Positions 14,120 through 63,661 of a DNA stretch of 64,000 nucleotides are shown piece by piece. The notes below the pieces were generated by a model. That model was not told the origin of the DNA. It saw only the letters and a program-made list of their open reading frames with translations, and did no database searches. The stretch's first letter is position 1, and each line of letters opens with the position of its first letter. The translations under genes were made by a program, and so were the position numbers. Origin of the DNA: Eledone cirrhosa (taxonomy: Eukaryota); contig OZ024741.1 of the NCBI GenBank assembly GCA_964016885.1, positions 239,258,001 to 239,322,000 on the forward strand, in the 5' to 3' direction.

Positions 14120-14169
<50 letters not shown>

Positions 14170-14212
14170 CATATATATATATACATATATATATATATAC
14201 ATATATATATAC

Positions 14213-14259
<47 letters not shown>

Positions 14260-14524
14260 CATATATATACATATATATATATATACATATATACATATAC
14301 ATATATATATACATATATATATACATATATATATATACATATATATATATACATATATATATATACATATATATATATACATATACATATATACATATAT
14401 ATATACATATATATATATACATATATATACATATATATATATATACATATATATACATATATATACATATATATACATATATATATATACATATATACAC
14501 ATATATATATATATACATATATAC

Positions 14525-14575
<51 letters not shown>

Positions 14576-14594
14576 CATATATATATACATATAC

Positions 14595-14659
<65 letters not shown>

Positions 14660-14660
14660 C

Positions 14661-14717
<57 letters not shown>

Positions 14718-14718
14718 C

Positions 14719-14769
<51 letters not shown>

Positions 14770-15121
14770 AATATATATATATACAAATATATATATACAT
14801 ATACAAATATATATATACATATACAAATATATATATACATATACAAATATATATATACATATACAAATATATATACATATTATTATTACTATTATAATAA
14901 TAATAATAATTAAGCTCTGTTGCATACATAGAGCACTCTTTTTTCCTGGACTTTTCCGATGGAATTACTTCATTTATATATATACATATACAAATATATA
15001 TATATATACAAATATATATATATATACAAATATATATATATATACATATACAAATATATATATATATACATATACAAATATATATATATATACATATACA
15101 AATATATATATATATACATAT

Positions 15122-15198
<77 letters not shown>

Positions 15199-15285
15199 AA
15201 TATATATATATATATATACAAATATATATATATATATATGCAAATATATATATATATATATACAAATATATATATATATATATAT

Positions 15286-15320
<35 letters not shown>
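14053..15320. repeat. long (TA)n/TACA/TACAAA compound microsatellite
   Basis: about 1.25 kb of almost pure TA with periodic C, interrupted at ~14880-14975. Confidence 0.97.
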
Positions 15321-15325
<5 letters not shown>

Positions 15326-15391
15326 CAGAAAAACTGAAGCAACAAGTTAATAACATTTAGTATTGAATGTTTGTTAATAAGTTGTAGATTA

Positions 15392-18062: not shown

Positions 18063-18181
18063 TTAGCTGACTATTACATCTGGTGTTGAAGGTAACTGTC
18101 TCTCTGGAGGTTTCACATATCTGTCTTGGTAATGGTCTCTCTCATTGTTGCTTGAAACATCAGGTGTGACCCTATATAATC
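18063..18181 (-). CDS. protocadherin A terminal coding exon (GLYRVTPDVSSNNERDHYQDRYVKPPERQLPSTPDVIVS*)
   Basis: acceptor ATTTTAG, open in phase 1 to TAA, homologous to the terminal exons of B-F. Confidence 0.8.
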
Positions 18182-19149
18182 CTAAAATATGTAGAAATAC
18201 AAAGAAACTGCAATAAACATACAAGCATTAGGTATTTTCCATACATACAATACAATATACAATACCTTTTAAAAAATGGGATCGTAAAATAATATCATTG
18301 ATTAAATCGACCCAATACTTGACTGATACTGATATTATCGACCCAAGATGATCAGTAGTCTAATTGTTTGATCAATCGAACAGCTTATTCATGAAATTAA
18401 CATGTAAGTGGCTGAGCATTCCACAGACACGTGTACCCATAACGTAATTCTCGGGGAGATTCAACTTGACACACTGTGATAGCTGGCCCTGAATTACAGA
18501 TACAGTTCATTCAATGTGCTTCTAAATAGTTGCCATCTTCCTACTCTCACTGACAAGGCATGGGTCAACCCAGGGATATGGTAAATGACACTTACCATGC
18601 AGTGGGATCACACCCAGGGCTTAATAGTTGCTGCTGCTTCTGCTACTATTATGCCTACAATATGCAGACACTTCAGTTCAAAAAATGAAAGTAAATTATA
18701 TGAGCTCCATACTAAAGTAGATTAAAGTAAACCATCCAAAATGTAAACAACACTTTTTAGTTATTTCTGATCCAGCAGACTAAAGACATTACACTATTGT
18801 CCATCCAGTATTTTATTGAGATATCGTGTATCTAAGACTACATTATCCAATGTGTCCTTCTTTCTTTAAATGGTATAAAATGATTTAAAGGAGATTTGGC
18901 TACTATTTCTAACTGGTCAAGCGACTAGATAGAGGCTACCTTATTGGCTCATGGTAGTAGTAGTTGATATAGTCTATAGCAATGTTTCACTGTCATAACT
19001 GTAAATGTCAACAATGATGATGATGAATTAGTTACAAGAAAGAAGCCAGAAGTCTTCTGTAATCAAGAGACAAACTGCTTTGATTAGGAAAATTGTCAGG
19101 AACCCAAGATGCACTACATTTGTATGTAACATATACAAATAATTCAACA

Positions 19150-19370
19150 GATGCCTGGCTTGGTTTTCTACAGCTAACGCCAACTACCTTACAGGATGAA
19201 CAGGGTGGTTTCTGTTGTGACACCAGTACAACTACCTTTGTTGGTGGATTGAGAGCTTTTTGTCATGGCACCAGTATGACCTCCTTACCAAGTGGACTGG
19301 GTACTTTTTGTTATGGCACCAGTATGACCACTTCACTAGATGGACTAGGTGCTTTTTTTATCATGACATA
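19150..19370 (-). repeat. degenerate copies of the ~48-bp-family tandem unit
   Basis: GGTGGACTGGGTGCTTTT-like motif repeated about five times. Confidence 0.55.
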
Positions 19371-20144
19371 AATATAATCTATGCATTTGTACACATTCTT
19401 ATTTTAAAAACCTGTAACTCCTAGTGGAGCCATAGGAGCAATTTAGTGATATATGGTGTTTCTTGGACATTTTAAACTTGGTTGAGCCCATCCCTCTCCA
19501 GGATTGAGAACAGTTGATTTCTTCCAGAGAAGAAGAGAGAGTGAAAGAGATGTAGTAAGAAAGAGAAAAAGAGGAATTGATCTCAGTACTGGACTAATAT
19601 TCTATTGACCTCAAAAGGATGAAAGATAAAGTTAATCTTGGAAGGATTAGAACATGGAAAGCTGGAATGAATACCACAAAGCACTATCTGATGTCTAAAC
19701 AGCTTTGCTAATTTGTTGCCTATACACATATATATGGTCAAATATGTAAATATATGTACATGGGCATACATCTGTTAGCGTGTTAGAAATAGATAGAAGG
19801 AAGAAAGGGAAATCAATGCTACTAAATCCTACTTTAATTTTTATGTGTAAAAATTTATGATGGAATAAAGAGCACGATGACTATTAATGACAGAAAATTG
19901 GGGGAAGGAGCAAGTTGTAGGAACAATTTGAAGTTAATGAACCAAAAATGTTGAAATGGTAGATAATGATACATATATTGCTGTTGGTAATGATTATGAT
20001 ATTGAAAATAAGTGATAATACATACATTACTATTAACACATTGACAGTGTGTGCTGGGTGCTTTTTGCCGTGTCTTTTACATGTCCACTTTACAGTGTGA
20101 GTGCTTTTGATATGGGAAGGAATAACTACCGCCAGTAGTCATCA

Positions 20145-20550
20145 TTATCATACTCTATACATTATGTCCCTCGTATGTATCGCCTCTATCATCATCATCA
20201 CAATCATTATGACACACATAAACCTCATCCCGACTACCACCACCAGAAGCACCAACATTATTATTCAAAGCTACAACCACGACCAACACTTAACATCCAA
20301 AGCTACCAACAACACCATCAATATTATAATCCAAAGCTGCCACCACCATCACTACCATTATTATTACCATCCATAGCTACCACCACCTCCACTACCATCA
20401 TTGTCATCCAAAGCTACCACCACCACCATTAATATCATCCAAAGCTACAACACAATCATCACCATTATCATCCAAAATTATCCACACCACTACCACTGCT
20501 ACCAACATGATAATCATCCCAAGCTATCACCACCAACAACAACCACGGCA
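20145..20550. repeat. (CAT/CAC)n-rich degenerate tandem repeat with ATCCAAAGCTACCAC units
   Basis: direct inspection. Confidence 0.8.
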
Positions 20551-20680
20551 AAATTATCAGCTCCAGAAAATATTTAAACTCAACAGAATGCACTGCTGGT
20601 GTGTGGTGTCATATATGAGGTCTCATCGGTCAGTCTCCACATTATAAACAACAGCACATCACAAGAATTAATCACCCTAC

Positions 20681-20834
20681 CTGACATTGCTGGTATTTCT
20701 TCATACTGTCTACTTGACCTCTCACTCCAGCACTGTCCACTACTCTTACAACTGGTCAATGTATCAGTAGGAAAGTTAAAAGATGGTCTGTTGTCTCCAT
20801 AAGATGTCACCTCTATAGGTTGACTATATTTCTG
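20681..20834 (-). CDS. protocadherin A first cytoplasmic exon (QKYSQP...RQYEEIPAMS)
   Basis: TTTTACAG acceptor, GTAGG donor, 154 nt, phase 0 to 1, conserved in six copies. Confidence 0.85.
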
Positions 20835-21395
20835 CTGTAAAATAAAGTTAATATTAAAAACTTTATACAATATTTATGTTATTTATAGCTGACAGTTATA
20901 TCTGGTATAAAACAATAACAAAAACTTTTCGTGGAATAACTATTGAGTGACATAGGTTATATTTTACAATGTCAATCAGACAGATTAATGAAAAGGAGGC
21001 CTCATTTTCATTGTAGCTGGCCATGGGTTTGCACCTACAAAGGTACTCTCTGAGGTACAAGCCTAGACAAGTTATTTTTGTGGAAGACCAGCAGTCACCC
21101 ATCCATGCTAGTCTCCCCTCTCCGTACAAGCAAAGTTGTCCAAGGGAAAGGTCAAGACCAATACAGTCGAGCACCAGTGATGTTGCAATTCATTTTTACC
21201 AATTGAGTGTACTGGGGCAATGTGAAATAAGATGTCTTGCTTAAGGGTACAATATGCCTGATCCAGGAATCAAACGCACTACCTCATGATTGAGAATCCA
21301 ACACTAACCAATAAGCCACACACTATCATAAAGAAACACATTTATAGTAAAATCACATATTCAAGGTTGCTTACAAAATAATAAATAGAACTTAC

Positions 21396-23744
21396 CTTCA
21401 TAGATTTTTGAAGAGATCTGTTCATTGTTGATGTCTTCCAGTCTTCAGGATAGTAATGGCTTCTAGACTGACTATATCTGTCTGATATCTCTCCTCGATT
21501 ACCTGACATCACAGATACACTGTTGTTACCTTGATAGATCAACTGTCTCATCTCATTACGACATTGGTATGCCTGTTTCTCTTCTGTTGTTCTAGCTGAG
21601 TTATTTCTAACATTGTTACATCTCACAATACACAATGTTATAGAAACCACAATAGCTATAGATACTATCACAGCTGCTACTACAATGATAATCAACAATG
21701 TTGCATCTATTGTGTTATCAGTTGATACAGGGACAGCTGTGAACATTGGTGATGTCTTGTTACTAACAGTCAGTGTTAAAGAGACACTAGTTGTTGCTGA
21801 CAGAACTGGAGTACCACTGTCTTTCACAACAAACTCCAGTTGATATGATCCAGCATCATTTTGGTAAACTGTGCGAGAGTAAGATAAGACACCAGTGAAT
21901 GAGTCCAGTTTAAATAATTGTTTTTCATTACCTGAAAGGATTTCATACCTGAGAAAAGCATTCATGTGACTGTCTATATCAGAGGCTTTCAGAAGTGTGA
22001 TGTCATTCTTACTTTGTGGATGATAGTGGACATCAAGAGTGAAAGGGTCAACACTAGGAAATGTAAAATATGGAGCATTATCATTTTTATCTAATACTTC
22101 CACTTCAACATTCACTGTGTTATTTAGAGATGGTGTTCCATTGTCTTTGACTAAAACCTCAAAGTCATAGAAATCTCTGTGTTCTCTGTCTAAAGACTGG
22201 TTTGTTGAAATAAAGCCAGAGTTGATAATCTGGAATGGTAGACGATATTTGTGTTTATTTCTCAGATAATAACTTAATTCACCTCCCTTACCAACATCTG
22301 GGTCTGTAGCATTGATAAAACCAATAGGGAAATTAGCTTTGTCATTCTCATAGGTAAGGAACTTGAATGTATCTTTGGTAAAGTGTGGTTTTACATCATT
22401 CACATCTAACACTTGTATTGAGAGATCTTTATCAGTTTTGAGAGGAGGTAATCCTTTATCTTGACAGGAGACAGTGAAGTGATAATGTTCCTGTGTCTCT
22501 CTGTCTACTGCTTTCTTTAGAACTATTTTATATTCTTTAGATCCCATTGACTGTAGTTTGAAGGTATCGTGTTTGATATTACAGCTGACCTCTCCATTGT
22601 GTCCAACATCATTGTCAGTGACCATCACATAAGCAATGAAACTACCAACTTTGATATCTTCCAGAATGGTAGCTGTGTTGTGATTTGGTGTAGAAATAAA
22701 GTTGACATCAATATTTGGAGGATTGTTCTGTTGGTTGATAACATTTACCATAACAGTTGCTATGGCACTGAGTGGTGGACTGCCTCCATCTCTGGCTTCA
22801 ACATATAATTTAAATGATTTCTTTTTTTCCAAATCAGAATGTTTAGTCAAGAAAAGCTCCCCAGAATCTTTATCTATTATGAAATTACGTTTTGCTTCAG
22901 TTGATGTTGAGAGACTGAAATGATAAAAGATTTTACCATTTTCTCCAATATCAGAGTCTTTTGCCAACATGACAATAATTGGTATATTTCTTTTGTGGTT
23001 ATTTTGTATGGAGACATTGTATGTCTTCTCAGAAAATATTGGTCTATTATCATTCTCATCTTTGACAGTAATGTGTACAGTTAAGACACCTTGTTTGGGT
23101 GGATTTCCTCCATCTTTAGCTATCACTTCTATGTCATAACTGTCTTTTATCTCTCTATCTAACTTCTCATCTAATATAATTTCAAGGGAGGATACACCAT
23201 CAGCTCTTTGAAATGTAGACAAAGAAAATTGTTGGTTACTACCTTTTAATTCATAATTTACTAGTCTGTTCTGTAAACCAACATCATCATCAATTGCATT
23301 GGGTATTGATCGTTTTGTCCCCTTGCCCTCAGTTTCATAAAAATCTAAATTAATTTCTTCAACAGGAAACTCAGGTGTATGGTCATTGATGTCTTCTATC
23401 ATTACCTTAATCTTTAATATCTTTATAAATTTCTTTGCTCTATGAACTGCTACCTTAATTGTGCGAAAACATTCTTTCTCAAAACTACACAGAGACTCAG
23501 CATCCAGTGTTTGTGTAGTATATATCTTTCCATTACTGGTCACATTAAATAGCTGTGTCCCCTTCTGTTGTAACTGACTAAATGATAATAATGCAATGTC
23601 CTGTAACTGTGAATCAGCAGTGATGTCTCCTATATTGATAATACGACTGTTTTCTTCTTCCACATGGTAAACAATGTCTTCTTTAGAGAGTGAATAGTGA
23701 AGTAGAGACAGTAATATCCATATCTTTATTAAGACCATCTTCAT
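21396..23744 (-). CDS. Pcdh: protocadherin A large exon (signal peptide, EC1-6, TM, juxtamembrane); spliced protein ~873 aa
   Basis: DxNDN/LDRE/DxD cadherin motifs, C-X5-C in EC1, hydrophobic TM; AAG|GTAAGT donor at 21395; acceptor 28 nt upstream of ATG (exon starts 23772). Confidence 0.95.
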
Positions 23745-27575: not shown

Positions 27576-27697
27576 TCAGTTAGTAATGACATCTGGTGTT
27601 GAAGGTAACTGTCTCTCTGGAGGTTTCACATATCTATCTTGATATTGTTGTCTATCACTGTTCACAACTGATGTATCATGTTGACTACCATAGATCC
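27576..27697 (-). CDS. protocadherin B terminal coding exon (GIYGSQHDTSVVNSDRQQYQDRYVKPPERQLPSTPDVITN*)
   Basis: CTCTTTTCCAG acceptor, open in phase 1 to TGA. Confidence 0.85.
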
Positions 27698-27870
27698 CTG
27701 GAAAAGAGACAGTTTTAGTGTAGCAATGTTAGAGACAATCACTGTTATCAGAAATACTGTAGTAATGACATACACACAGGACTAATTACACAACACTACA
27801 TAATTACAATTGGTACAATAATTAATAATGAAATAGTGTAATACTAAATGAGAATAGTTAGTCAACATAC

Positions 27871-28024
27871 CTGTCGTTGCTGGTATTTCTTCATACTGTC
27901 TACTTGACCTCTCACTCCAGCACTGTCCACTACTCTTACGACTGGTCAATGTATCAGTCGGATAGTTAGAAGATGGTCTGTTGTCTCCATAAGATGTCAC
28001 CTCTATAGGTTGACTATATTTCTG
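27871..28024 (-). CDS. protocadherin B first cytoplasmic exon
   Basis: 154 nt, AG/GT bounded, in frame. Confidence 0.85.
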
Positions 28025-28209
28025 CTGTAAAATATAAGTTACCAGAATGTAAAGATACGGATTATCAATGACAGTTTTATATCTGATATTGAATAAATTA
28101 CTATAGTTTAGTTCAATAAATACTTCAGTAAAAATATATTTATATATATTTATCTTTGAAAATATTATCTGAACTGGATAATATTAGAATATATTTCCAC
28201 TAAATAGGT

Positions 28210-28705
28210 CAATACCTAGGCACTCCTCCTTCTACATCATCACTACGAGCCTTGACATGGTCAGCTTTCCATAACTGAGGCCTGCTTGCTTTGACAATAG
28301 TGATGGTAAACACCCAGATGGGATAACCATTTTATCATTGAAGAAAAGTAAATCAAGGACACCATGACACCTTCTCTGCATCCAACCATGTCATTTTGGA
28401 AAGATATGCAGGCACGGCTATCTGAAACCCTGAGAAGACAAAGACAGCCAAATATCAGTACTTCACTGACCACTTTTTTTCATACTGGTCACTGCCAAGA
28501 CATCTGGTGTACTTTGAGTCTGAACTGGTGTTTTCCTCCACAAAATAGGAAGGAATACATAACTACCTAAAAAAAGCCATCTGTGAGAGGAAGTGACTGA
28601 TGCAGTGTGTTGCTGGCAATTCTCTGCAGCAATACCTCTGCCATTTTGTCCACAGGGCGCAGCTGAGATATACTGCCTAGACACATGTATAGAGTCTGCC
28701 ACAAT
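28210..28705 (+). mobile_element. decayed non-LTR retrotransposon relic (restriction-like endonuclease region, CRE-like); paralogous copies at ~36815-37315, 45965-46490, 53670-54005, 63785-64000
   Basis: translations resemble the RPDG-x-T...WDxT..DT...RK..KY..L...F..V..ET.G..G motif (clearest at 46081-46390); many stops. Confidence 0.6.
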
Positions 28706-29461
28706 ATTATACACTATTACAAAAATTATATAATTTAACTGAAATTTATTGAATAAAAATATTATTGTCGTAGATATTAAATATTTTTATCAAGGACTAA
28801 TATAGCATATTAATACACACATATGTATTAATATATATTTAAGGTAAATCATTTTACGTTAATCTTTTTCTATGTATCAGAAAAATTATTAGAAGTTTTA
28901 AGATATTCAAGTATATTGATTTCAGTGTGGACTGTGTGGACTGGACGATCTGTGATACCAACATAGCTTTACAGAGAAAAGGTGGTGTTGGGGGGAGTGA
29001 GAGGATTGAGTAGAGGTAGTGGGTTGGGGTGTATATTTGGTTAAGAGGTGCCTACTGACTGTAGGTTTAATTTTGTACGAAAGGGAAGGCGGGTCTCTGT
29101 TTTAGTGCGTAGCACCAATGGTCTTGATCCAGTGACATTGTCTTAGAGAGGTGTAAGTGTGCAAGGTCAGATTTTATCATGTGCCAGGTTTAAAATCTGA
29201 TCTTGCATGGTAGCAAGACATTTTGCTCAACACCCCACACATTGTGTTAAACTACAATCTCCTGTGTTGATTAATTTTGAGTATCTTGAAGATAAAATAC
29301 ATACAAAATATACAACACAAGTCATCATCATCATCATCATTTTATGTCCGCTCTTCCCTGCTTGCGAAATCAGATTTACTTAATTAACAATAATATTTAC
29401 AGAAACAAAACAATTCCAAAATAAAGATTAGTTACCACATAGTTATTAAAATAATACTTAC

Positions 29462-31804
29462 CCTTGTAGATTTCTGAAGAGATCTGTTCATTGTTGATGT
29501 CTTCCAGTCTTCAGGAGAGTAATGACTTCTAGACTGACTATATCTATCAGATATCTCTCCTCGATTATCTGACATCACAGATACACTGTTGTTACCTTGA
29601 TAGATCAACTGTCTCATCTCATTACGACATTGGTATGCCTGTTTCTCTTCTGTTGTTCTAGCTGAGTTATTTCTCACATTGTTACATCTCACAATACACA
29701 ATGTTATAGAAACCACAATAGCTATAGATACTATCACAGCTGCTACTACAATGATAATCAACAATGTTGCATCTATTGTGTTATCAGTTGGTACATGGAC
29801 AGCTGTGAACATTGGTGATGTCTTGTTACTAACAGTCAGTGTTAAAGAGACACTAGTTGTTGCTGACAGAACTGGAGTACCACTGTCTTTCACAACAAAC
29901 TCCAGTTGATATGATCCGGCATCATTTTGGTAAACTGTGCGAGAGTAAGATAAGACACCAGTGAATGAGTCCAGTTTAAATAACTGTCTCTCATTACCTG
30001 AAAGGATTTCATACCTGAGAAAAGCATTCATGTGACTGTCTATATCAGAGGCTTTCAGAAGTGTGATGTCATTCTTACTTTGTGGATGATAGTGGACATC
30101 AAGAGTGAAAGGGTCAACACTAGGAAATGTAAAATATGGAGCATTATCATTTTTATCTAATACTTCCACTTCAACATTTACTGTGTTATTTAGAGATGGT
30201 GTTCCATTGTCTTTGACAAAAACCTCAAAATCATAGAAATCTCTGTGTTCTCTGTCTAAAGATTGGTTTGTTGAAATAAAGCCAGAGTTGATAATCTGGA
30301 ATGGCAGACGATATTGGTGTTTATTTCTCAGATAATAACTTAATTCACCTCCCTTACCAACATCTGGGTCTGTAGCATTGATAAAACCAATAGGGAAATT
30401 AGCTTTGTCATTCTCATAGGTAAGGAACTTGAATATATCTTTGGTAAAGTGTGGTTTTACATCATTCACATCTAACACTTGTATTGAGAGATCTTTATCA
30501 GTTTTGAGAGGAGGTAATCCTTTATCTTGACAGGAGACAGTGAAGTGATAATGTTCCTGTGTCTCTCTGTCTACTGCTTTCTTTAGAACTATTTTATATT
30601 CTTTAGATCCCATTGACTGTAGTTTGAAGGTATCATGTTTAATATTACAGCTGACCTCTCCATTGTGTCCAACATCATTGTCAGTGACCATCACATAAGC
30701 AATGAAACTACCAACTTTGATATCTTCCAGAATGGTAGCTGTGTTGTGATTCTGTGTAGAAATATAGTTGACATCAATATTTGGAGGATTGTTGTGTTGG
30801 TTGATAACATTTACCATAACAGTTGCTATGGCACTGAGTGGTGGACTGCCTCCATCTCTGGCTTCAATATATAATTTAAATGATTTCATCTCATCTAAAT
30901 GATATTCTTTTGCCAAGAATATTTCCCCAGATTTCACATCTATAATGAAATTACTTTTTGATTCTGTTGCTGTTGTTGGGCTGATAAAATAAGAAATTTT
31001 ACCATTTTCTCCAATATCAGAGTCTTTTGCCAACATGATAATAATTGGTATATTTCTTTTCTGTTTATTTTGTATTGAGATATTGTATGTCTTCTCAGAA
31101 AATATTGGTCTGTTATCATTCTCATCTTTGACAGTAATGTGTACAGTTAAGACACCTTGTTTGGGTGGACTTCCTCCATCTTTAGAAATCACTTCTATGT
31201 CATAACTATCTTTTATCTCTCTATCTAACTTCTCATCTAACATAATTTCAAGAAACGATACACCATCAGCTCTTTGAAATGTAGACAAAGAAAACTGATT
31301 GTTACTACCTTTCAATTCATAATTCACTAGTCTGTTTTGTAAACCAACATCATCATCAATTGCATTGGGTATTGATCGTTTTGTCCCTTTGCTTTCAGTT
31401 TCATCAAAGTCTAAATTAATTTCTTCAACAGGAAACTCAGGTGTATGGTCATTGATGTCTTCTATCATTACCTTAATCTTTAATATCTTTATAAATTTCT
31501 CTGCTCTATGAACTGCTACCTTAATTGTACGAGAACATTCTTTCTCAAAACTACACAGAGACTCAGCATCCAGTGTTTGTGTAGTATATATCTTTCCATT
31601 ACTGGTCACATTAAATAGCTGTGTCCCCTTCTGTTGTAACTGACTAAATGATAATAATGCAATGTCCTGTAATTGTGAATCAGCAGTAATATCTCCTATA
31701 TTGATAATACGACTGTTTTCTTCTTTAACATGATAAACAATGTCTTCTTTAGAGAGTGAATAGTGAAGTAGAGACAGTAATATCCATATGTGTATTAAGA
31801 CCAT
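29462..31804 (-). CDS. Pcdh: protocadherin B large exon; spliced protein ~872 aa
   Basis: six EC repeats plus TM; AGG|GTAAGT donor at 29461; exon starts 31838. Confidence 0.95.
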
Positions 31805-36181: not shown

Positions 36182-36303
36182 TCAGTTAGTAATGACATCT
36201 GGTGTTGAAGGTAACTGTCTCTCTGGAGGTTTCACATATCTATCTTGATATTGTTGTCTATCACTGTTCACAACTGATGTATCATGTTGACTACCATAGA
36301 TCC
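36182..36303 (-). CDS. protocadherin C terminal coding exon
   Basis: same structure as in B, 122 nt to TGA. Confidence 0.85.
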
Positions 36304-36478
36304 CTGGAAAAGAGACAATCTTTTAGTGTAGCAATGTTAGAGACAATCACTGTTATCAGAAATACTGTAGTAATGACATACACACAGGACTAATTACACC
36401 AAACTACATAATTACAATTGGTACAATAATTAATAATGAAATAGTATAATACTAAATGAGAATAGTTAGTCAACATAC

Positions 36479-36632
36479 CTGTCGTTGCTGGTATTTCTTC
36501 ATACTGTCTACTTGACCTCTCACTCCAGCACTGACCACTACTCTTACGACTGGTCAATGTATCAGTGGGATAGTTAGAAGATGGCTTGTTGTCTCCATAA
36601 GATGTCACCTCTATAGGTTGACTATATTTCTG
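36479..36632 (-). CDS. protocadherin C first cytoplasmic exon
   Basis: 154 nt, AG/GT bounded. Confidence 0.85.
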
Positions 36633-37677
36633 CTGTAAAATATAAGTTACCAGAATGTAAAGATACGGATTATCAATGACAGTGTTATATCTGATATTGA
36701 ATAAATTACTATAGTTTAGTTCAATAAATACTTCAGTAAAAATATATTTATATATATTTATCTTTGAAAATATTATCTGAACTGGATAATATTAGAATAT
36801 ATTTCCACTAAACAGGTCAGTACCTAGGCACTCCTCCTTCTACATCATCACTAGAAGCCTTGACGTGGTCAACTTTCCATAACTGAGGCCTGCTTGCTTT
36901 GACCATAGTGATGGTAAACACCCAGATGGGATAACCATTTTATTATTGAAGAAAAGTAAATCAAGGACACCATGACACCTTCTCTGCATCCAACCATGTC
37001 ATTTTGGAAAGATATGCAGGCACGGCTATCTGAAACCCAGAGAAGACAAAGACAGCCAAATATCAGTACTTCACTGACCACTTCTTTTTCATACTGGTCA
37101 CTGCCAAGACATCTGGTGTACTTTGAGTCTGAACTGGTGTTTTCCTCCACAAAATAGGAAGGAATACATAACTACCTAAAAAAAGCCATCTGTGAGAGGA
37201 AGTGACTGATGCAGTCTATGTTGCTGGCAATTCTCTGCAGCAATACCTCTGCCATTTTGTCCACAGGGCGCAGCTGAGATATACTGCCTAGACACATGTA
37301 TAGAGTCTGCCACAATATTATACACTATTACAAAAATTATATAATTTAACTGAAATTTATTGAATAAAAATATTATTGTCGTAGATATTAAATATTTTTA
37401 TCAAGGACTAATATAGCATATTAATACACACATATGTATTAATATATATTTAAGGTAAATCATTTTACGTTAATCTTTTTCTATGTATCAGAAAAATTAT
37501 TAGAAGTTTTAAGATATTCAAGTATATTGATTTACAAGACTATGATTTATAGGAGTGGATATCATCAGTTATATAAACCCTCACTCCTAATTGGTGTTAA
37601 TTCTACCAACGTTGAGAGGATAGATTGGATTCTGGTTAGAGTTGAACTCTTGACATAATGGGATGTACGCAGAGGTC

Positions 37678-37950
37678 ATCATCATCATCGTTTAATGAAT
37701 GTCTTCCACGCTAGCATGGGTTAGATGGGAATTGTCCCACTTGAGGCAAGATTGATCGGGTGACCATGTCTCGCTCGTATAGGACTGTATCTAGCAGGTT
37801 TTCTACAGCTCGATGCCCTTCCTAACACCAACCACATTTACAGTGTGGACTGGGAGCCTTTTTACCACGTCTCCTACACAACCACTTTACAGTGTGGACT
37901 GGGTGCTTTTTTTCGTGACACCTACACAACCTCTTTAGTGTGGACTGGAA
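37678..37950 (-). mobile_element. retroelement 3'-end family copy with (TGA)n tail and 48-bp-family units
   Basis: reverse complement of the terminal motif at 25640-25822; mostly deleted at the matching site in unit B (~28920). Confidence 0.7.
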
Positions 37951-38468
37951 GATCTGTGATACCAACATAACTTTACAGAGAAAAGGTGGTGTTGGGGGGA
38001 GTGAGAGGATTTAGTAGAGGTAGTGGGTTGGGGTGTATATTTGGTTAAGAGGTGCCTACTGACTGTAGGTTTAATTTTGTACGAAAGGGAAGGCGGGTCT
38101 CTGTTTTAGTGCGTAGCACCAATGGTCTTGATCCAGTGACATTGTCTTAGAGAGGCGTAAGTGTGCAAGTTCAGATTTTATCATGTGCCAGGTTTAAAAT
38201 CTGATCTTGCACGGTAGCAAGACATTTTGCTCAACACCCCACACATTGTGTTAAACTACAATCTCCTGTGTTGATTAATTTTGAGTATCTTGAAGATAAA
38301 ATACAGACAAAATATACAACACAAGTCATCATCATCATCATCATGATTTTATGTCCGCTCTTCCCTTCTTGCGAAATCAGATTTACTTAACTAACAGTAA
38401 TATTTACAGAAACAAAACAATTCCAAAATAAAGATTAGTTACCACATAGTTATTAAAATAATACTCAC

Positions 38469-40817
38469 CCTTGTAGATTTCTGAAGAGATCTGTTCATTG
38501 TTGATGTCTTCCAGTCTTCAGGATAGTAATGGCTTCTAGACTGACTATATCTGTCTGATATCTCTCCTCGATTACCTGACATCACAGATACACTGTTGTT
38601 ACCTTGATAGATCAACTGTCTCATCTCATTACGACATTGGTATGCCTGTTTCTCTTCTGTTGTTCTAGCTGAGTTATTTCTCACATTGTTACATCTCACA
38701 ATACACAATGTTATAGAAACCACAATAGCTATAGATACTATCACAGCTGCTACTACAATGATAATCAACAATGTTGCATCTATTGTGTTATCAGTTGGTA
38801 CATGGACAGCTGTGAACATTGGTGATGTCTTGTTACTAACAGTCAGTGTTAAAGAGAGACTAGTTGTTGCTGACAGAACTGGAGTACCACTGTCTTTCAC
38901 AACAAACTCCAGTTGATATGATCCGGCATCATTTTGGTAAACTGTGCGAGAGTAAGATAAGACACCAGTGAATGAGTCCAGTTTAAATAATTGTCTCTCA
39001 TTACCTGAAAGGATTTCATACCTGAGAAAAGCATTCATGTGACTGTCTATATCAGAGGCTTTCAGAAGTGTGATGTCATTCTTACTTTGTGGATGATAGT
39101 GGACATCAAGAGTGAAAGGGTCAACACTAGGAAATGTAAAATATGGAACATTATCATTTTTATCTAATACTTCCACTTCAACATTCACTGTGTTATTTAG
39201 AGATGGTGTTCCATTGTCTTTGACTAAAACCTCAAAGTCATAGAAATCTCTGTGTTCTCTGTCTAAAGACTGGTTTGTTGAAATAAAACCAGAGTTGATA
39301 ATCTGGAATGGTAGACGATATTGGTGTTTATTTCTCAGATAATAACTTAATTCACCTCCCTTACCAACATCTGGGTCTGTAGCATTGATAAAACCAATAG
39401 GGAAATTAGCTTTGTCATTTTCATAGGTAAGGAACTTGAATGTATCTTTGGTAAAGTGTGGTTTTACATCATTCACATCTAACACTTGTATTGAGAGATC
39501 TTTATCAGTTTTCAGAGAAGGTAATCCTTTATCTTGACAAGAGACAGTAAAGTGATAATGTTCCTGTGTCTCTCTGTCTACTGCTTTCTTTAGAACTATT
39601 TTATATTCTTTAGATCCCATTGACTGTAGTTTGAATGTATCATGTTTGATATTACAGCTGACCTCTCCATTGTGTCCAACATCATTGTCAGTGACCATCA
39701 CATAAGCAATGAAACTACCAACTTTGATATCTTCCAGAATGGTAGCTGTGTTGTGATTCTGTGTAGAAATATAGTTGACATCAATATTTGGAGGATTGTT
39801 CTGTTGGTTGATAACATTTACCATAACAGTTGTTATGGCACTGAGTGGTGGACTGCCTCCATCTCTGGCTTCAATATATAATTTAAATGATTTGATCTCA
39901 TCTAAGTGAGATTCTTTTGCCAAGAATATTTCCCCAGATTTCACATCTATAATGAAATTACTTTTTGATTCTGTTGCTGTTGTTGGGCTAATAAAATAAG
40001 AAATTTTACCATTTTCTCCAATATCAGAGTCTTTTGCCAACATGACAATAATTGGTATATTTCTTTTGTAGTTATTTTGTATGGAGATATTGTATGTCTT
40101 CTCAGAAAATATTGGTCTGTTATCATTCTCATCTTTGACAGTAATGTGTACAGTTAAGAAACCTTGTTTGGGTGGACTTCCTCCATCTTTAGAAATCACT
40201 TCTATGTCATAACTATCTTTTATCTCTCTATCTAACTTCTCATCTAATATAATTTCAAGAAACGATACACCATCAGCTCTTTGAAATGTCGACAAAGAAA
40301 ACTGATTGTTACTACCTTTCAATTCATAATTCACTAGTCTGTTTTGTAAACCAACATCATCATCAATTGCATTGGGTATTGATCGTTTTGTCCCCTTGCC
40401 CTCAGTTTCATCAAAGTCTAAATTAATTTCTTCAACAGGAAACTCAGGTGTATGGTCATTGATGTCTTCTATCATTACCTTAATCTTTAATATCTTTATA
40501 AATTTCTCTGCTCTATGAACTGCTACCTTAATTGTACGAGAACATTCTTTCTCAAAACTACACAGAGACTCAGCATCCAGTGTTTGTGTAGTATATATCT
40601 TTCCATTACTGGTCACATTAAATAGCTGTGTCCCCTTCTGTTGTAACTGACTAAATGATAATAATGCAATGTCCTGTAACTGTGAATCAGCAGTGATGTC
40701 TCCTACATTGATAATACGACTGTTTTCTTCTTTCACATGATAAACAATGTCTTCTTTAGAGAGTGAATAGTGAAGTAGAGACAGTAATATCCATATCTGT
40801 ATTAAGACCATCTTCAT
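38469..40817 (-). CDS. Pcdh: protocadherin C large exon; spliced protein ~874 aa
   Basis: six EC repeats plus TM; AGG|GTGAGT donor at 38468; exon starts 40845. Confidence 0.95.
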
Positions 40818-45336: not shown

Positions 45337-45458
45337 TCAGTTAGTAATGACATCTGGTGTTGAAGGTAACTGTCTCTCTGGAGGTTTCACATATCTATCT
45401 TGATATTGTTGTCTATCACTGTTCACAACTGATGTATCATGTTGACTACCATAGATCC
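45337..45458 (-). CDS. protocadherin D terminal coding exon
   Basis: 122 nt to TGA. Confidence 0.85.
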
Positions 45459-45633
45459 CTGGAAAAGAGACAATATTTTAGTGTAGCAATGTTAGAGACA
45501 ATCACTGTTATCAGAAATACTGTAGTAATGACATACACACAGGACTAATTACACAACACTACATAATTACAATTGGTACAATAATTAATAATGAAATAGT
45601 GTAATACTAAATGAGAATAGTTTGTCAACATAC

Positions 45634-45787
45634 CTGTCATTGCTGGTATTTCTTCATACTGTCTACTTGACCTCTCACTCCAGCACTGACCACTACTCTT
45701 ATGACTGGTCAATGTATCAGTGGGATAGTTAAAAGATGGCTTGTTGTCTCCATAAGATGTCACCTCTATAGGTTGACTATATTTCTG
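45634..45787 (-). CDS. protocadherin D first cytoplasmic exon
   Basis: 154 nt, AG/GT bounded. Confidence 0.85.
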
Positions 45788-47295
45788 CTGTAAAATATAA
45801 GTTACCAGAATGTAAAGGTACCAATTATCAATGACATTGTTATATCTGATATTGAATAAATTACTATAGTTTAGTTCAATGAATACTTCAGTAGAAATAT
45901 ATTTATACATTTATCTTTGAAAACGTTATCTCAAATGGATAATATTAGAATATAATATTTCCACTGTGCAAGCAGGTTTCCTAGGCACACTGGTGTGAAC
46001 AGCATCATTAGAAAGTGCCCTGATGTGTCTAGCTTCCCATCATAACAGGGGCCTGCTGACCTTGATCATGGTGATGGCAAGACCACAGATGTGATAACCC
46101 TTTTATGATTTGAGGAAAGTAAATCTCTGATCTAGCATGCCATGTACTGTGATACATTCTTTTCTTCTCACATTGTTCTTTTGATAACAAACCCAGACAC
46201 TACTGCATGGAACTCTAAGAAAAGGAAGACAGCCAAGTACCAGGACTTGACCAAGGACTTCGTTTTCATCCTGGTCACTGTCAAGACATCTGAAATCCTT
46301 GGTCTTTGGACAGTTGTTTTCCTCCACAAAATCGACTGGAATACATCCTGGCTGAGGAAGGAGACCTGTGAAAGGAATTATCTCCTGTAGTGCTGGTTGT
46401 TTCTGCAATGCCTTTGCCATTTTGCTCCCAGGGCACAGCTGAGATATACTGCCTAGACCTATTTATAGATGTATGGAGTCTGCCACTATGTTCTCCTTCT
46501 CCTTACATGTATTATATTTTATTACAAAAATTATATTATTTAATTGAAATTTGTTGAATAAAAACATTGTGGTTGGTATCAAATATTTCTTATTAAGGTC
46601 TAATAAAGTATTCCGCACATGTGTTAATACTTATTTACCATAAATCATTGTGGTAAACATAAATTTCATGCTTGGGATAATTCAAAATGACAATGTATTC
46701 TAAATATATATTGTAAATATAATCAAAGAATGTTCAATGTGAATCTTTTTGTATGTATCAGAAAGATTATCAATAATTTATTAGGAAGTTCAAGATATTC
46801 AGGTATAAACAATACAACCACAAGCCTAAAATTTATAGGGTTGCATATCATCAAGTATATAAACACTGAGTCATAACTAGTATTCATTTTATGAATGTTG
46901 GGAGGATTAATTACAGAATCAGATGTACCCAGAGGTAGCAAGATATTTTGCCTGATATCCCACAGATTCAGTTCAACAACAGTCTCCTAGTGTTGATTAA
47001 TTTTGAGGGTCTTGAAGATAAATTACAGATAAAATGTATGACAGAATTCTCAGAATGAGATGTACCCATAGGTCGCAAGATATTTTACTCGACAAGCCAC
47101 AGATTGTGTTAAACTACAGTCTCCAGTGTTGATTTATTTTGAGTGACTTGAAGATAAATTGTACACAAAATATAAGACACACAATTCTGTATGTAAATTT
47201 TACTAGATTTACTTAACTAACAATAATATGTACAAAAACAAAACAATTCAAAGATAAAGATGTGTTACAAAATAGTTACGTAAAATAACACTTAC

Positions 47296-49638
47296 TCTGG
47301 TTGATTTCTGAAGAGATCTGTTCATTGTTGATGTCTTCCAGTCTTCAGGATAGTAATGGCTTCTAGACTGACTATATCTGTCTGATATATCTCCTCGATT
47401 ACCTGACATCACAGATACACTGTTGTTACCTTGATAGATCAACTGTCTCATCTCATTACGACATTGGTATGCCTGTTTCTCTTCTGTTGTTCTAGCTGAG
47501 TTATTTCTCACATTGTTACATCTCACAATACACAATGTTATAGAAACCACAATAGCTATAGATACTATCACAGCTGCTACTACAATGATAATCAACAATG
47601 TTGCATCTATTGTGTTATCAGTTGGTACATGGACAGCTGTGAACATTGGTGATGTCTTGTTACTAACAGTCAGTGTTAAAGAGACACGAGTTGTTGCTGA
47701 CAGAACTGGAGTACCACTGTCTTTCACAACAAACTCCAGTTGATATGATCCAGCATCATTTTGGTAAACTGTGCGAGAGTAAGATAAGACACCAGTGAAT
47801 GAGTCCAATTTAAATAACTGTCTCTCATTACCTGAAAGGATTTCATACCTGAGAAAAGCATTCATGTGACTGTCTATATCAGAGGCTTTCAGAAGTGTGA
47901 TGTCATTCTTACTTTGTGGATGATAGTGTATATCAAGAGTGAAAGGGTCAACACTAGGAAATGTAAAATATGGAGCATTATCATTTTTATCTAATACTTC
48001 CACTTCAACATTCACTGTGTTATTTAGAGATGGTGTTCCATTGTCTTTGACAAAAACCTCAAAATCATAGAAATCTCTGTGTTCTCTGTCTAAAGACTGG
48101 TTTGTTGAAATAAAGCCAGAGTTGATAATCTGGAATGGTAGATGATATTGGTGTTTATTTCTCAGATAATAACTTAATTCACCTCCCTTACCAACATCTG
48201 GGTCTGTAGCATTGATAAAACCAATAGGGAAATTAGCTTTGTCGTTCTCATAGGTAAGGAACTTGAATGTATCTTTGGTAAAGTGTGGTTTTACATCATT
48301 CACATCTAACACTTGTATTGAGAGATCTTTATCAGTTTTGAGAGGAGGTAATCCTTTATCTTGACAGGAGACAGTAAAGTGATAATGTTCCTGTGTCTCT
48401 CTGTCTACTGCTTTCTTTAGAACTATTTTATATTCCTTAGATCCCATTGACTGTAGTTTGAATGTATCATGTTTGATATTACAGCTGACCTCTCCATTGT
48501 GTCCAACATCATTGTCAGTGACCATCACATAAGCAATGAAACTACCAACTTTGATATCTTCCAGAATGGTAGCTGTGTTGTGATTCTGTGTAGAAATATA
48601 GTTGACATCAATATTTGGAGGATTGTTCTGTTGGTTGATAACATTTACCATAACAGTTGTTATGGCACTGAGTGGTGGGTTGCCATTATCTCTGGCTTCA
48701 ATATATAATTTAAATGATTTCATCTCATCTAAGTGATATTCTTTTGCCAAAAATATTTCTCCAGATTTCACATCTATAATAAAATTATTTTTTGATTCTG
48801 TTGCTGTTGTTGGGCTGATAAAATAAGAAATTTTACCATTTTCTCCAATATCAGAGTCTTTTGCCAACATGACAATAATTGGTATATTTCTTTTGTGGTT
48901 ATTTTGTATGGAGACATTGTATGTCTTCTCAGAAAATATTGGTCTGTTATCATTCTCATCTTTGACAGTAATGTGTACAGTTAAGAAACCTTGTTTGGGT
49001 GGATTTCCTCCATCTTTAGCTATCACTTCTATGTCATAATTATCTTTTATCTCTCTATCTAACTTCCCACCTAACATGATTTCAAGAAATGATACACCAT
49101 CAGCTCTTTGAAATGTAGACAAAGAAAACTGTTGGTTACTTCCTTTCAATTCATAATTCACTAGTCTGTTCTGTAAACCAACATCTTCATCAATTGCATT
49201 GGGTATTGATTTTTTCATACCTTTTCCATCTCCTTCTTCAAATTTTAACTGGATTTCTTCAACAGGAAACTCAGGTGTATGGTCATTGATGTCTTCTATC
49301 ATTACCTTAATCTTTAATATCTTTATAAATTTCTCTGCTCTATGAACTGCTACCTTAATTGTACGAGAACATTCTTTCTCAAAACTACACAGAGACTCAG
49401 CATCCAGTGTTTGTGTAGTATATATCTTTCCATTACTGGTCACATTAAATAGCTGTGTCCCCTTCTGTTGTAACTGACTAAATGATAATAATGCAATGTC
49501 CTGTAACTGTGAATCAGCAGTAATATCTCCTATATTGATAATACGACTGTTTTCTTCTTTCACATGGTAAACAATGTCTTCTTTAGAAAGTGAATAGTGA
49601 AGTAGAGACAGTAATATCCATATCTGTATTAAGACCAT
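47296..49638 (-). CDS. Pcdh: protocadherin D large exon; spliced protein ~872 aa
   Basis: six EC repeats plus TM; AGA|GTAAGT donor at 47295; exon starts 49672. Confidence 0.95.
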
Positions 49639-53028: not shown

Positions 53029-53150
53029 TCAGTTAGTAATGACATCTGGTGTTGAAGGTAACTGTCTCTCTGGAGGTTTCACATATCTATCTTGATATTG
53101 TTGTCTATCACTGTTCACAACTGATGCATCATGTTGACTACCATAGATCC
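53029..53150 (-). CDS. protocadherin E terminal coding exon
   Basis: 122 nt to TGA. Confidence 0.85.
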
Positions 53151-53323
53151 CTGGAAAAGAGACAATATTTTAGTGTAGCAATGTTAGAGACAATCACTGT
53201 TATCAGAAATACTGTAGTAATGACACACACAGGACTAATTACACCAAACTACATAATTACAATTGGTACAATAATTAATAATGAAATAGTGTAATACTAA
53301 ATGAGAATAGTTTGTCAACATAC

Positions 53324-53477
53324 CTGTCATTGCTGGTATTTCTTCATACTGTCTACTTGACCTTTCACTCCAGCACTGTCCACTGCTCTTACGACTGGTC
53401 AATGTATCAGTGGGATAGTTAGAAGATGGCCTGTTGTCTCCATAAGATGTCACCTCTATAGGTTGACTATATTTCTG
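53324..53477 (-). CDS. protocadherin E first cytoplasmic exon
   Basis: 154 nt, AG/GT bounded. Confidence 0.85.
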
Positions 53478-54693
53478 CTGTAAAATATAAGTTACCAGAA
53501 TGTAAAGATACCAATTATCAATGACAGTGTTATATCTGATATTGAATAATTTATAACAGCTTAGTTCAATGAATACAATGCTTCCATAGATGTCTATTTA
53601 TATATATTTATCTCTAAAAATGTTATCTCAAATCGAGCATATTAGTTAATATTCCACTTAAAAATATAAATCTGGAATGCCAATTGCCGTGACATTCCCT
53701 GCCTCTACTCATCATTTTGATAACTAATCAAGGCATTGCTGTCGGAAACACTGAGAAGAAGAAGATACCAGGACTTGACTGGCCACTTCTTTTTCATGCT
53801 GGTCACTGACAGGATATCTGGTGTACTAATGCTTTCCTCCACAAAGTCAGAAGCAATATATCATGCCTGAAGAAGGAAACCTTTTAGAGGAAATGGCTGA
53901 TGCAGTATGTTGCTTATTGTTCTCTGCAGCAATTATTTTGCTATTTTGTCCACAAGACACCGCTGAGATATACTACATGGACACATGTATGGAGTCTGTT
54001 ACAATATCCTCCTTCCCCTTACATTCATTATATATTATAGCAAACATTATATAATTTAATTGAAATTTATTGAATAAAAATATTATTGTCATAGATATTA
54101 AATATTTTTTTATCAAGGACTAATAAAGCATTCCATACGTATGTGTTAATGCTTATTTAATGTGAAACATTGATGTAAGCATAAATATCATACTTGATAG
54201 ATAATTCAAAATGACAATATATTCCAAAATATAATCAAAGCATGCTTAAAGTGAGTCTTTGTGTGTCAGAAAGATTATTAAAAATGTTTTAGTGTAGCAA
54301 TGTTAGAGACAAGATATTCAAGTATATTGATTTACAAGACTATAATTTGGAGGGGTGGATATCATCTCTTATATAAACACTCTGTCCTAATTAGTGTTTA
54401 TTTTATCAATGTTGGGAGAAATACATTGGATTCTGGTGAGAGTTGAACTCTATACGGAAAGAGATGTACCCACAGGTAGCAAGACATTTTGTCCAACACC
54501 CCACTCACTGTGTTAAACTAGTCTCCTGTGTTAAATTATTTTGAGTGACTTGAAGATAAATTACAGACAAAATGAATGACACAATTCTGTATACAAATTT
54601 TACCAGATTTACTTAACTAACTAATATTTAGAGAAACAAAACAATTCAAAAATAAACATGAGTTACAACATAGTTAAATAAAATAATACTTAC

Positions 54694-57030
54694 CCTAGTT
54701 GATTTCTGAAGAGATCTGTTCATTGTTGATGTCTTCCAGTCTTCAGGATAGTAATGACTTCTAGACTGACTATATCTGTCTGATATCTCTCCTCGATTGC
54801 CTGACATCACAGATACACTGTTGTTACCTTGATAGATCAACTGCCTCATCTCATTACGACATTGGTATGCCTGTTTCTCTTCTGTTGTTCTAGCTGAGTT
54901 ATTTCTTACATTGTTACATCTCACAATACACAATGTTATAGAAACCACAATAGCTATAGATACTATCACAGCTGCTACTACAATGATAATCAACAATGTT
55001 GCATCTATTGTGTTATCAGTTGGTACATGGACAGCTGTGAACATTGGTGATGTCTTGTTACTAACAGTCAGTGTCAAAGAGACACTAGTTGTTGCTGACA
55101 GAACTGGAGTACCACTGTCTTTCACAACAAACTCCAGTTGATATGATCCAGCATCATTTTGGTAAACTGTACGAGAGTAAGATAAGACACCAGTGAATGA
55201 GTCCAGTTTAAATAACTGTCTCTCATTACCTGAAAGGATTTCATACCTGAGAAAAGCATTCATGTGACTGTCTATATCAGAGGCTTTCAGAAGTGTGATG
55301 TCATTCTTACTTTGTGGATGATAGTGGACATCAAGAGTGAAAGGGTCAACACTTGGAAATGTAAAATATGGAACATTATCATTTTTATCTAATACTTCCA
55401 CTTCAACATTCACTGTGTTATTTAGAGATGGTGTTCCATTATCTTTGACTAAAACCTCAAAGTCATAGAAATCTCTGTGTTCTCTGTCTAAAGACTGGTT
55501 TGTTGAAATAAAACCAGAGTTGATAATCTGGAATGGTAGACGATATTGGTGTTTATTTCTCAGATAATAACTTAATTCACCTCCTTTACCAACATCTGGG
55601 TCTGTAGCATTGATAAAACCAATAGGGAAATTAGCTTTGTCATTCTCATAGGTAAGGAACTTGAATGTATCTTTGGTAAAGTGTGGTTTTACATCATTCA
55701 CATCTAACACTTGTATTGAGAGATCTTTATCAGTTTTGAGAGGAGGTAATCCTTTATCTTGACAGGAGACAGTAAAGTGATAATGTTCCTGTGTCTCTCT
55801 GTCTACTGCTTTCTTTAGAACTATTTTATATTCCTTAGATCCCATTGACTGTAGTTTGAATGTATCATGTTTGATATCACAGCTGACCTCTCCATTGTGT
55901 CCAACATCATTGTCAGTGACCATCACATAAGCAATGAAACTACCAACTTTGATATCTTCCAGAATGGTAGCTGTGTTGTGATTCTGTGTAGAAATATAGT
56001 TGACATCAATATTTGGAGGATTGTTCTGTTGGTTGATAACATTTACCATAACAGTTGCTATGGAACTAAGAGGTGGGTTGCCCCCATCTCTGGCCTCTAT
56101 ATACAATTTAAAGAATTTCTTCTTTTCTAAAGCAGAATGTTTGGCTAAGAATATTTCTCCAGTTTTCTGATCAACCTTGAAATTATTTATTGATTCTTTA
56201 GAGGTTAATGAACTGATAAAATAAGAAGTGTTACCATTTTCTCCAATATCAGAGTCTTTTGCCAACATGACAATAAATGGTATATTTCTTTTGTGGTTAT
56301 TTTGTATAGAGATATTGTATGTTTTCTCAGAAAATATTGGTCTGTTATCATTCTCATCTTTGACAGTAATGTGTACAGATAAGACACCTTGTTTGGGTGG
56401 ACTTCCTCCATCTTTAGCTATCACTTCTATGTCATAACTATCTTTTATCTCTCTATCTAACTTCCTATCTAACACAACTTCTAATGAGACCAACCTATCT
56501 GCTATCTGAAATGTAGACAAAGAAAACTGTTGGTTACTTCCTTTCAATTCATAATTTACTAGTCTGTTCTGTAAACCAACATCTTCATCAATGGCATTGG
56601 GAATGGACTTTTTCATACCTTTTCCATCTCCTTCTTCAAATTTTAACTGGATTTCTTCAACAGGAAACTCAGGTGTATGGTCATTGATGTCTTCTATCAT
56701 TACCTTAATCTTTAATATCTTTATAAATTTCTCTGCTCTATGAACTGCTACCTTAATTGTGCGAGAACATTCTTTCTCAAAACTACACAGAGACTCAGCA
56801 TCCAGTGTTTGTGTAGTATATATCTTTCCATTACTGGTCACATTAAATAGCTGTGTCCCCTTCTGTTGTAACTGACTAAATGATAATAATGCAATGTCCT
56901 GTAACTGTGAATCAGCAGTAATATCTCCTATATTGATAATTCGATGGTTTTCTTCTTTCACGTGGTAAACAATGTCTTCTGTAGAATAGTGAAGTAGAGA
57001 CAGTAGTATCCATATCTGTATTAAGACCAT
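54694..57030 (-). CDS. Pcdh: protocadherin E large exon; spliced protein ~870 aa
   Basis: six EC repeats plus TM; AGG|GTAAGT donor at 54693; exon starts 57056; two-codon deletion near the signal-peptide end. Confidence 0.95.
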
Positions 57031-63212: not shown

Positions 63213-63334
63213 TCAGTTAGTAATGACATCTGGTGTTGAAGGTAACTGTCTCTCTGGAGGTTTCACATATCTATCTTGGTATTGTTGTCTATCATTGTTC
63301 ACAACTGATGTATCATGTTGACTACCATAGATCC
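63213..63334 (-). CDS. protocadherin F terminal coding exon (gene continues beyond the window)
   Basis: 122 nt to TGA. Confidence 0.8.
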
Positions 63335-63507
63335 CTGGAAAAGAGACAATGTTTTAGTGTAGCAATGTTAGAGACAATCACTTATCAGAAATACTGTAGT
63401 AATGACATACACACAGGACTAATTACACCAAACTACATAATTACAATTGGTACAATAATTGATAATGAAATAATATAATATTAAATGAGAGTAGTTTGTC
63501 AACATAC

Positions 63508-63661
63508 CTGTCATTGCTGGTATTTCTTCATACTGTCTACTTGACCTTTCACTCCAGCACTGTCCACTACTCTTATGACTGGTCAATGTATCAGTGGGAT
63601 AGTTAGAAGATGGTCTGTTGTCTCCATAAGATGTCACCTCTATAGGTTGACTATATTTCTG
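63508..63661 (-). CDS. protocadherin F first cytoplasmic exon
   Basis: 154 nt, AG/GT bounded; the large exon presumably lies beyond 64000. Confidence 0.8.

Follow-up and report, generated by a model that had tools for sequence, protein, structure and literature searches.

Predicted SH2- and SH3-docking motifs in the cytoplasmic tails of octopod clustered protocadherins

To which intracellular partners do the clustered protocadherins of octopods couple, and do their tails carry a common docking signal? In the available portion of the O. vulgaris paper, intracellular partners are described as unexplored and vertebrate motifs as not found (PMC6339937). To address this question, we analysed a 64-kb stretch of the Eledone genome (G000:C2:239258001-239322000), which is referred to throughout as the window. 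It contains five complete protocadherin genes (A-E) and the tail of a sixth (F), all on the minus strand (Table 1). In each complete gene, a large exon 1 encodes cadherin repeats, the transmembrane helix, and the proximal tail, the 154-nt exon 2 ends with ...RQYEEIPA(M/T)(S/T), and the terminal exon ends with ...DRYVKPPERQLPSTPDV. The initial annotation had proposed a two-motif tail, with YEEIP in the 154-nt exon and RQLPSTP about 35 residues further on in all six genes. Both motifs are indeed present in 6/6 genes, the Tyr of YEEIP and the Arg of RQLPSTP being separated by 35 residues in gene A and by 36 in genes B-F, but a third conserved motif, DRYVKP, had been overlooked. Three further open reading frames in the window (25088-25555, 41357-41818, and 13963-15346) lie over repeats, namely a minisatellite-like one rich in Cys and an AT microsatellite, and are probably not genes.

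Table 1. Positions of protocadherin exons and predicted tail motifs in the 64-kb window
Feature	Position	Strand	Remarks
Gene A, exon 1 (signal peptide, cadherin repeats, transmembrane helix, proximal tail)	21396..23744	-	ATG at 23744 or 23738
Gene A, exon 2	20681..20834	-	154 nt; AG..GT borders
Gene A, YEEIP, predicted phosphotyrosine SH2 ligand	20691..20705	-	YEEI at 20694-20705; prediction based in part on family conservation
Gene A, terminal coding exon (exon 3)	18063..18181	-	
Gene A, YVKP within DRYVKP, conserved terminal Y-x-K-P motif	18108..18119	-	
Gene A, RQLPSTP, class I SH3-type ligand motif	18081..18101	-	
Gene B	27576..31804	-	exon 1 29462-31804; exon 2 27871-28024; exon 3 27576-27697
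Gene B, motifs	YEEIP 27881-27895; RQLPSTP 27594-27614	-	
Gene C	36182..40817	-	exon 1 38469-40817; exon 2 36479-36632; exon 3 36182-36303
Gene C, motifs	YEEIP 36489-36503; RQLPSTP 36200-36220	-	
Gene D	45337..49638	-	exon 1 47296-49638; exon 2 45634-45787; exon 3 45337-45458
Gene D, motifs	YEEIP 45644-45658; RQLPSTP 45355-45375	-	
Gene E	53029..57030	-	exon 1 54694-57030; exon 2 53324-53477; exon 3 53029-53150
Gene E, motifs	YEEIP 53334-53348; RQLPSTP 53047-53067	-	
Gene F, tail	63213..63661	-	exon 2 63508-63661; exon 3 63213-63334; exon 1 runs past the window edge
Gene F, motifs	YEEIP 63518-63532; RQLPSTP 63231-63251	-	

The splicing and reading frames on which this tail depends are borne out by processed retrocopies and by annotated octopod proteins with the same tail. 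In retrocopy L001 (G000:C1:225096917 onward), exons 1, 2, and 3 are fused without introns: 12 nt of the exon-1 end common to seven array genes are followed by an exon 2 that is 92.9% identical to that of gene A, and then by exon 3. The exon 2-exon 3 junction is also preserved in L002. L001, L002, and L003 are three 5'-truncated, pseudogene-like copies of the array tail on other contigs; L002 and L003 read RQLLSTP. The same tail is found in annotated proteins of O. sinensis, O. vulgaris, O. bimaculoides, and Argonauta, which are gene models and not direct cDNA, and both motifs are present in 22 of the 23 full-length members of three annotated-protein clusters of the window-gene clade. Among the top 32 matches, the nearest named relatives were Argonauta and Octopus protocadherins, with 85-92% identity over the searched region. 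Three read runs covering introns contained no splice joint among 15 of 104 joints, and are uninformative on expression. A NAGNAG acceptor (CAG CAG) lies at exon 2 (window 20835-20840) and at the paralogous acceptors, and annotated isoforms differ by one Gln. In many other octopod protocadherins (P0353-P0491), the exon with the tyrosine motif is often skipped in annotated isoforms, which suggests a splicing switch.

The window genes are part of a larger array, with 45 exon-2 copies and 48 open reading frames of at least 600 amino acids in 423 kb. Its whole genes are arranged head to tail with no shared constant exons, every gene having its own exons 2 and 3; in vertebrate clustered protocadherins, by contrast, variable first exons are joined by splicing to constant exons that they have in common. 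The arrangement agrees with what is known of coleoid clustered protocadherins, which likewise have cadherin repeats, Cadherin_2 at EC1, and the ectodomain and transmembrane helix in one exon, and for which the available portions of two papers (PMC9068888, PMC6339937) likewise describe head-to-tail, multi-exon sub-arrays, whole-gene duplication, and suggested gene conversion. YEEIP is present in 45/45 exon-2 copies of the array and [RK]xLPxxP in 42 of the 44 terminal exons found, the two losses reading RQLATTS and TQLPSTP; the neighbouring paralogue has RQLSLTP (P0031) or KQLSLTQ (P0033). Further tandem protocadherin sub-arrays are located at G000:C2:239.97-240.23 Mb (approximately 30 exon-2 matches) and C7:1.66-1.73 Mb (approximately nine), and their tails have shared types of their own, YEE[IL]PG and YEELPG.

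To see how diversity is distributed along these genes, 32 of the 45 were modelled; the other 13 were dropped (exon end unparsed, exon not found, or a 3-nt deletion in exon 2). Over codons 1-320 of the modelled genes, piS was 0.29-0.58 and piN 0.08-0.28, while in the remainder of exon 1 from codon 361 onward the corresponding values were 0.01-0.17 and at most 0.017; piS was 0.14 in exon 2 and 0.15 in exon 3. Mean amino-acid identity was 72% over the first 350 codons versus 98% over the rest of exon 1, which supports the proposal that diverse ectodomains share a common tail without sharing exons. The boundary near codon 350 is sharp, with EC1-3 diverse and EC4 to the tail homogenised (window 21396-23744 and paralogues in L005-L040). 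From this pattern of a diverse 5' half and a near-identical 3' half we infer that gene conversion probably maintains the uniformity of the EC4-to-tail half. Of the 51 columns of exon 2, 43 are invariant across the array; RYVKPPERQLPSTPD is encoded by a single codon per site in 32/32 modelled genes, and exon 3 contains 15 codons with zero synonymous variation in the same 32/32. Although the neighbour L004 is diverged elsewhere, a 25-nt patch over its YEEIPAMSG end (L004 1647-1671) matches gene A at 100% identity, and is likely a micro gene conversion.

Because the EC4-to-tail half is homogenised and the RQLPSTP stretch lacks synonymous variation, invariance of the motifs within the array is weak evidence of their function. 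The "functional constant region" of the initial annotation does exist, but that it is uniform does not mark out the two motifs in particular. The invariance of RQLPSTP, which had been taken as a functional signal, is within the array no greater than that of its flanks and reflects homogenisation at the DNA level. The terminal exon of gene A does differ from those of B-F, yet it is gene A that is near the array majority type, while B-F are a minority variant.

Chance does not account for the motifs: among the 120 best homologues, which are not independent of one another, YEEI was found in 59 and RxLPxxP in 54, whereas shuffling gave at most 2 and 4. The evidence that bears on their conservation comes from distant octopod paralogues. 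A set of 164 octopod proteins, 161 of them with a tail, was reduced to 44 clusters at 50% tail identity. YEEI was present in 16/44 tail clusters and Y[ED][EDT][ILV] in 28/44; some motif-negative clusters may be short isoforms, exon 2 being often skipped in annotations. In an unanchored alignment of 42 of the 44 representatives, the motif columns were conserved in 28/34 (Y), 29/35 (E), 23/35 (E), 18/35 (I), and 24/35 (P) rows, with a median column of 0.36. YEEIP is thus conserved above its flanks in the family, as the initial annotation's view of the motif demanded. On the ectodomain tree (a quick tree, with many deep forks open), YEEI is scattered over many branches, a distribution that suggests that it was ancestral in octopods. 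On C2 and C7 of the Eledone genome, 36 diverged exon-2 loci were compared, and 33 of them keep the tyrosine motif, a count that is biased upward, since the queries contained YEEIP. These loci show synonymous and I/L variation at the motif, with only I or L at +3. Judged by these comparisons, YEEIP is of old standing and under selection, and in most cases it is not accompanied by RxLPxxP.

The restriction to I or L at +3 also fits the Yxx-hydrophobic consensus of clathrin-adaptor sorting signals, and in many paralogues the C-terminus is only a few residues away from the motif. YEE(I/L) could thus be an unphosphorylated sorting signal that controls surface levels. Such a signal needs neither Glu at +1 nor Pro at +4, however, and both are strongly conserved; YVKP and RQLPSTP would also be left unexplained, and we regard this reading as remote. 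An ITAM was considered and rejected by eye, the second Tyr lacking YxxL/I.

A D-S-G-H-x-W-S-E block lies 13 to 6 residues before the Tyr in exon 2 of L054 and L078-L089 (SSGQCWSE in the window-gene clade, at window 20715-20741); it may resemble CM1 of vertebrate delta-Pcdh and the DSGxxS degron of beta-TrCP. Tail-directed searches, one of which scored 8000 candidates, revealed no homologous tail outside octopods, all matches being octopod; a search among representatives was dominated by giant cadherins and fused gene models. A search of the ESM Atlas returned only a 0.77 match, exon 3 had no PDB match, and no Pfam tail family was matched in seven proteins scanned.

Could conservation instead operate at the nucleotide level, through a GAAGAA splicing enhancer, the donor consensus, or gene conversion, with the peptide motif a by-product? 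The lack of synonymous changes at 15 exon-3 codons in 32/32 genes and the L004 patch are what such a process would produce. In a donor-context set of 32 loci (two near-duplicates dropped, gene A added), the donor adjoins the motif in 22 and may constrain the Pro codon, and GAA at +2 and CCA at +4 are over-represented. However, GAAGAA is intact in only 17/32 loci (counted by eye), while Tyr, Glu, and I/L persist, and I and L alternate at +3 via several codons. The TAT bias equals the background (49 TAT to 0 TAC before G), and the motif is kept in the 10/32 loci whose donor lies at a distance of 10 or 18 nt, the window-gene clade among them, as well as on contig C7. We conclude that a purely nucleotide-level origin is very improbable, though given the residual GAA/CCA bias, there may be a partial contribution of this kind.

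The SH3-type motif is distributed differently. A class I [RK]xLPxxP was found in 14/44 tail clusters, and together with the tyrosine motif in one protein in 11/44; in these 11 clusters, the spacings of the relaxed pair were 27-37, 74-133, and -48 to -56 residues. The exact pair of YEEI and RxLPxxP occurred in 1/16 YEEI clusters, i.e., in the window-gene clade only. In this co-occurrence scan of octopod tails, YEEIP thus mostly stands alone. Class I motifs appear in three layouts: a terminal RQLPSTP in the window-gene clade, an R[KR]LPPVP with which exon 1 ends, and a terminal KPLPxxP. Downstream of YEEI, class I motifs are absent from the five Eledone YEEI loci for which the terminal exon was found and from every annotated isoform of ten YEEI-only clusters. 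A downstream KPLPxxP exon was found within 10 kb in six diverged Eledone loci, all of them YEEL or YETL. The best column of the whole alignment was the Pro of the terminal Y-x-K-P (22/23 occupied rows), which takes the form DRYVKP in the window-gene clade, YxKPLPxVP in a long-tail clade, and DTYLEP in another.

What, then, might bind this tail? YEEI, with Ile or Leu at +3, is the classic Src-family optimum. It is probable that the predicted YEEIP site serves phosphotyrosine-dependent SH2 docking; that a Src-family kinase is a direct binder is slightly favoured, while true bipartite activation of Src is rather doubtful. For the combined reading, in which YEEIP of the shared tail would, when phosphorylated, dock an SH2 protein, most likely a Fyn/Src-like kinase, and YVKP and RQLPSTP would serve, in the window-gene clade only, as a further SH2 site and as an SH3 site, we consider the case evenly balanced. 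In the proposed course of events, adhesion would cluster the receptors, a tyrosine kinase would phosphorylate YEEIP, and the SH2 domain of the kinase would dock on pYEEIP; in the 45-copy array, RQLPSTP would strengthen docking through the SH3 domain, and approximately 45 recognition specificities would feed one output.

The Src family is the best single guess because most listed pYEEI binders belong to it, both sites could be engaged by a single protein, and Fyn is bound by vertebrate Pcdh-alpha (CNR) (Kohmura 1998, as cited in the available portion of PMC6339937). The Eledone genome encodes Fyn/Yes/Src-like (C4), Frk-like (C9), and Nck (C1) proteins, and SH2 exons of the Fyn/Yes/Src-like and Frk-like proteins were found; inspection by eye also pointed to SH2 exons of Abl-like and Crk-like type. 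The presence of these kinases is in keeping with the Src-family reading of the initial annotation, but its argument from invariance in six genes does not stand. Nor is either motif specific to Src. The QYEEIP hexamer of the octopus tail is identical to that of polyomavirus middle T, a viral protein. According to the accessible part of one study, the middle T peptide AEPQpYEEIPIY binds the Src SH2 domain at 0.55-0.8 uM, and the same pYEEI peptide is also bound by Nck1, Fer, Brk, and Shc1, with ten SH2 domains bound in that array (PMC3514216); hexamer identity therefore does not name the partner. RxLPxxP is likewise a ligand of RIM-BP and, in the excerpt at hand, of nephrocystin (PMC4380453).

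The two motifs might have separate partners, RQLPSTP anchoring the receptor to the presynaptic scaffold RIM-binding protein and YEEIP binding an SH2 protein independently. RQLPSTP is one residue away from the RIM-BP ligand RQLPQTP (PMC10814857, in part), and the ligands listed in the accessible section of another paper include RQLPQVP, RQLPQLP, RRLPPTP, and RKLPEIP (PMC4536467). RIM-BP SH3 ligands of RIM, CaV2/Cacophony, and Aplip1 likewise read RQLPxxP or R[RK]LPxxP, and in the portions of the literature available none is reported for a protocadherin. A second octopod clade has RRLPPVP/RKLPPVP, and the tyrosine and SH3 motifs are distributed largely independently, yet the commonest octopod form, KPLP[AK][VL]P, is less like RIM-BP ligands; on balance, we consider separate partners of this kind unlikely. 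Of 44 matches to a codon pattern for RQLPQxP, most were repeats, and among the five loci translated no RIM or CaV2 exon was recognised.

Dscam acts through Dock, and on this model the octopod tail would recruit an adaptor, Nck/Dock via pYEEIP or Crk/Abl via pYVKP, to remodel actin, Src being only the writer kinase. Nck SH3 domains prefer class II ligands, however, which would leave RQLPSTP unexplained, and Ile/Leu at +3 points to the Src family. An adaptor of this type is supported by binding of pYEEI to Nck1 and by the preference of Crk for D-x-pY-x-x-P (both from the accessible part of PMC3514216), by the terminal YxKP Pro described above, and by the Nck orthologue and the Abl-like and Crk-like SH2 exons of the genome. 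We rate it as less likely still than separate partners.

Docking of a Src-family kinase invites comparison with known systems. FAK contains RALPSIP and YAEI, and in both FAK and p130Cas the SH3 site precedes the SH2 site. In the octopus tail, too, a few tens of residues separate an SH2 tyrosine from a class I SH3 ligand, but the order is reversed, SH2 site then SH3 site, and the pairing is clade-restricted and predicted from sequence; the analogy that had been drawn with these proteins is thus not supported as argued. The Src-binding motifs of p130Cas are RPLPSPP and YDYV (PMC8542790, available portion). A further parallel is vertebrate Pcdh-alpha, where diverse ectodomains are likewise carried on one tail linked to a Src-family kinase, a link that is reported there and predicted here. 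In the accessible part of a review, the vertebrate protocadherin interactors named are Pyk2, FAK, and WAVE.

One deposited sequence raises the possibility of RNA editing at the tyrosine itself. The O. vulgaris protein QBA31128.1 (P0197), which is probably a transcriptome deposit, differs from genome-annotated P0274 at 1/852 residues, the motif Tyr being replaced by Cys. Tyr is present at that position in O. bimaculoides, in Argonauta, and in the Eledone genome (orthologous locus L074). The substitution is compatible with A-to-I (A-to-G) editing, which is possible, though as a single post hoc case it could be a polymorphism. One of two other QBA deposits keeps the Tyr, the other belongs to a clade with Cys also in genome-annotated proteins, and no further transcript-type deposits were found in 20 more protein clusters. 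In a clade other than that of QBA31128.1 (P0237, P0299-P0301), Cys replaces the motif Tyr in genome-annotated proteins of three species. According to the available text of the O. vulgaris paper, protocadherins are said to be edited more extensively (PMC6339937). A constant region maintained by concerted evolution without shared exons could, in the boldest form of the argument, be a Src-family switch (pYEEIP plus an SH3 site), convergent with Pcdh-alpha-Fyn and turned off in neurons by exon-2 skipping and by Tyr-to-Cys A-to-I editing; this is a long shot.

No description of SH2/SH3 docking motifs in protocadherin tails was found in a full-text literature search; Albertin 2015 or Wang and Ragsdale 2017, outside its reach, may contain one. 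The available portions of the coleoid protocadherin papers list no such cytoplasmic motif; Styfhals Table S2 gives EC1, EC5, EC6, TM, and PP1 motifs only, with no YEEI or SH3-type motif (PMC6339937), and the supplement alignments, as far as accessible, have no tail motif. The split between EC1-3 and EC4 to the tail is quantified in the present analysis. New here are the short putative SH2- and SH3-docking motifs of a clustered-protocadherin tail, within octopods, and a predicted partner. They provide the first testable lead on signalling by these neural adhesion proteins, with specific residues and a short partner list (the Src family, Nck, Crk/Abl, and RIM-BP) for peptide tests of cephalopod protocadherin signalling, and they raise a testable link to RNA editing. 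They also indicate how a single output could serve many recognition specificities although no exons are shared.
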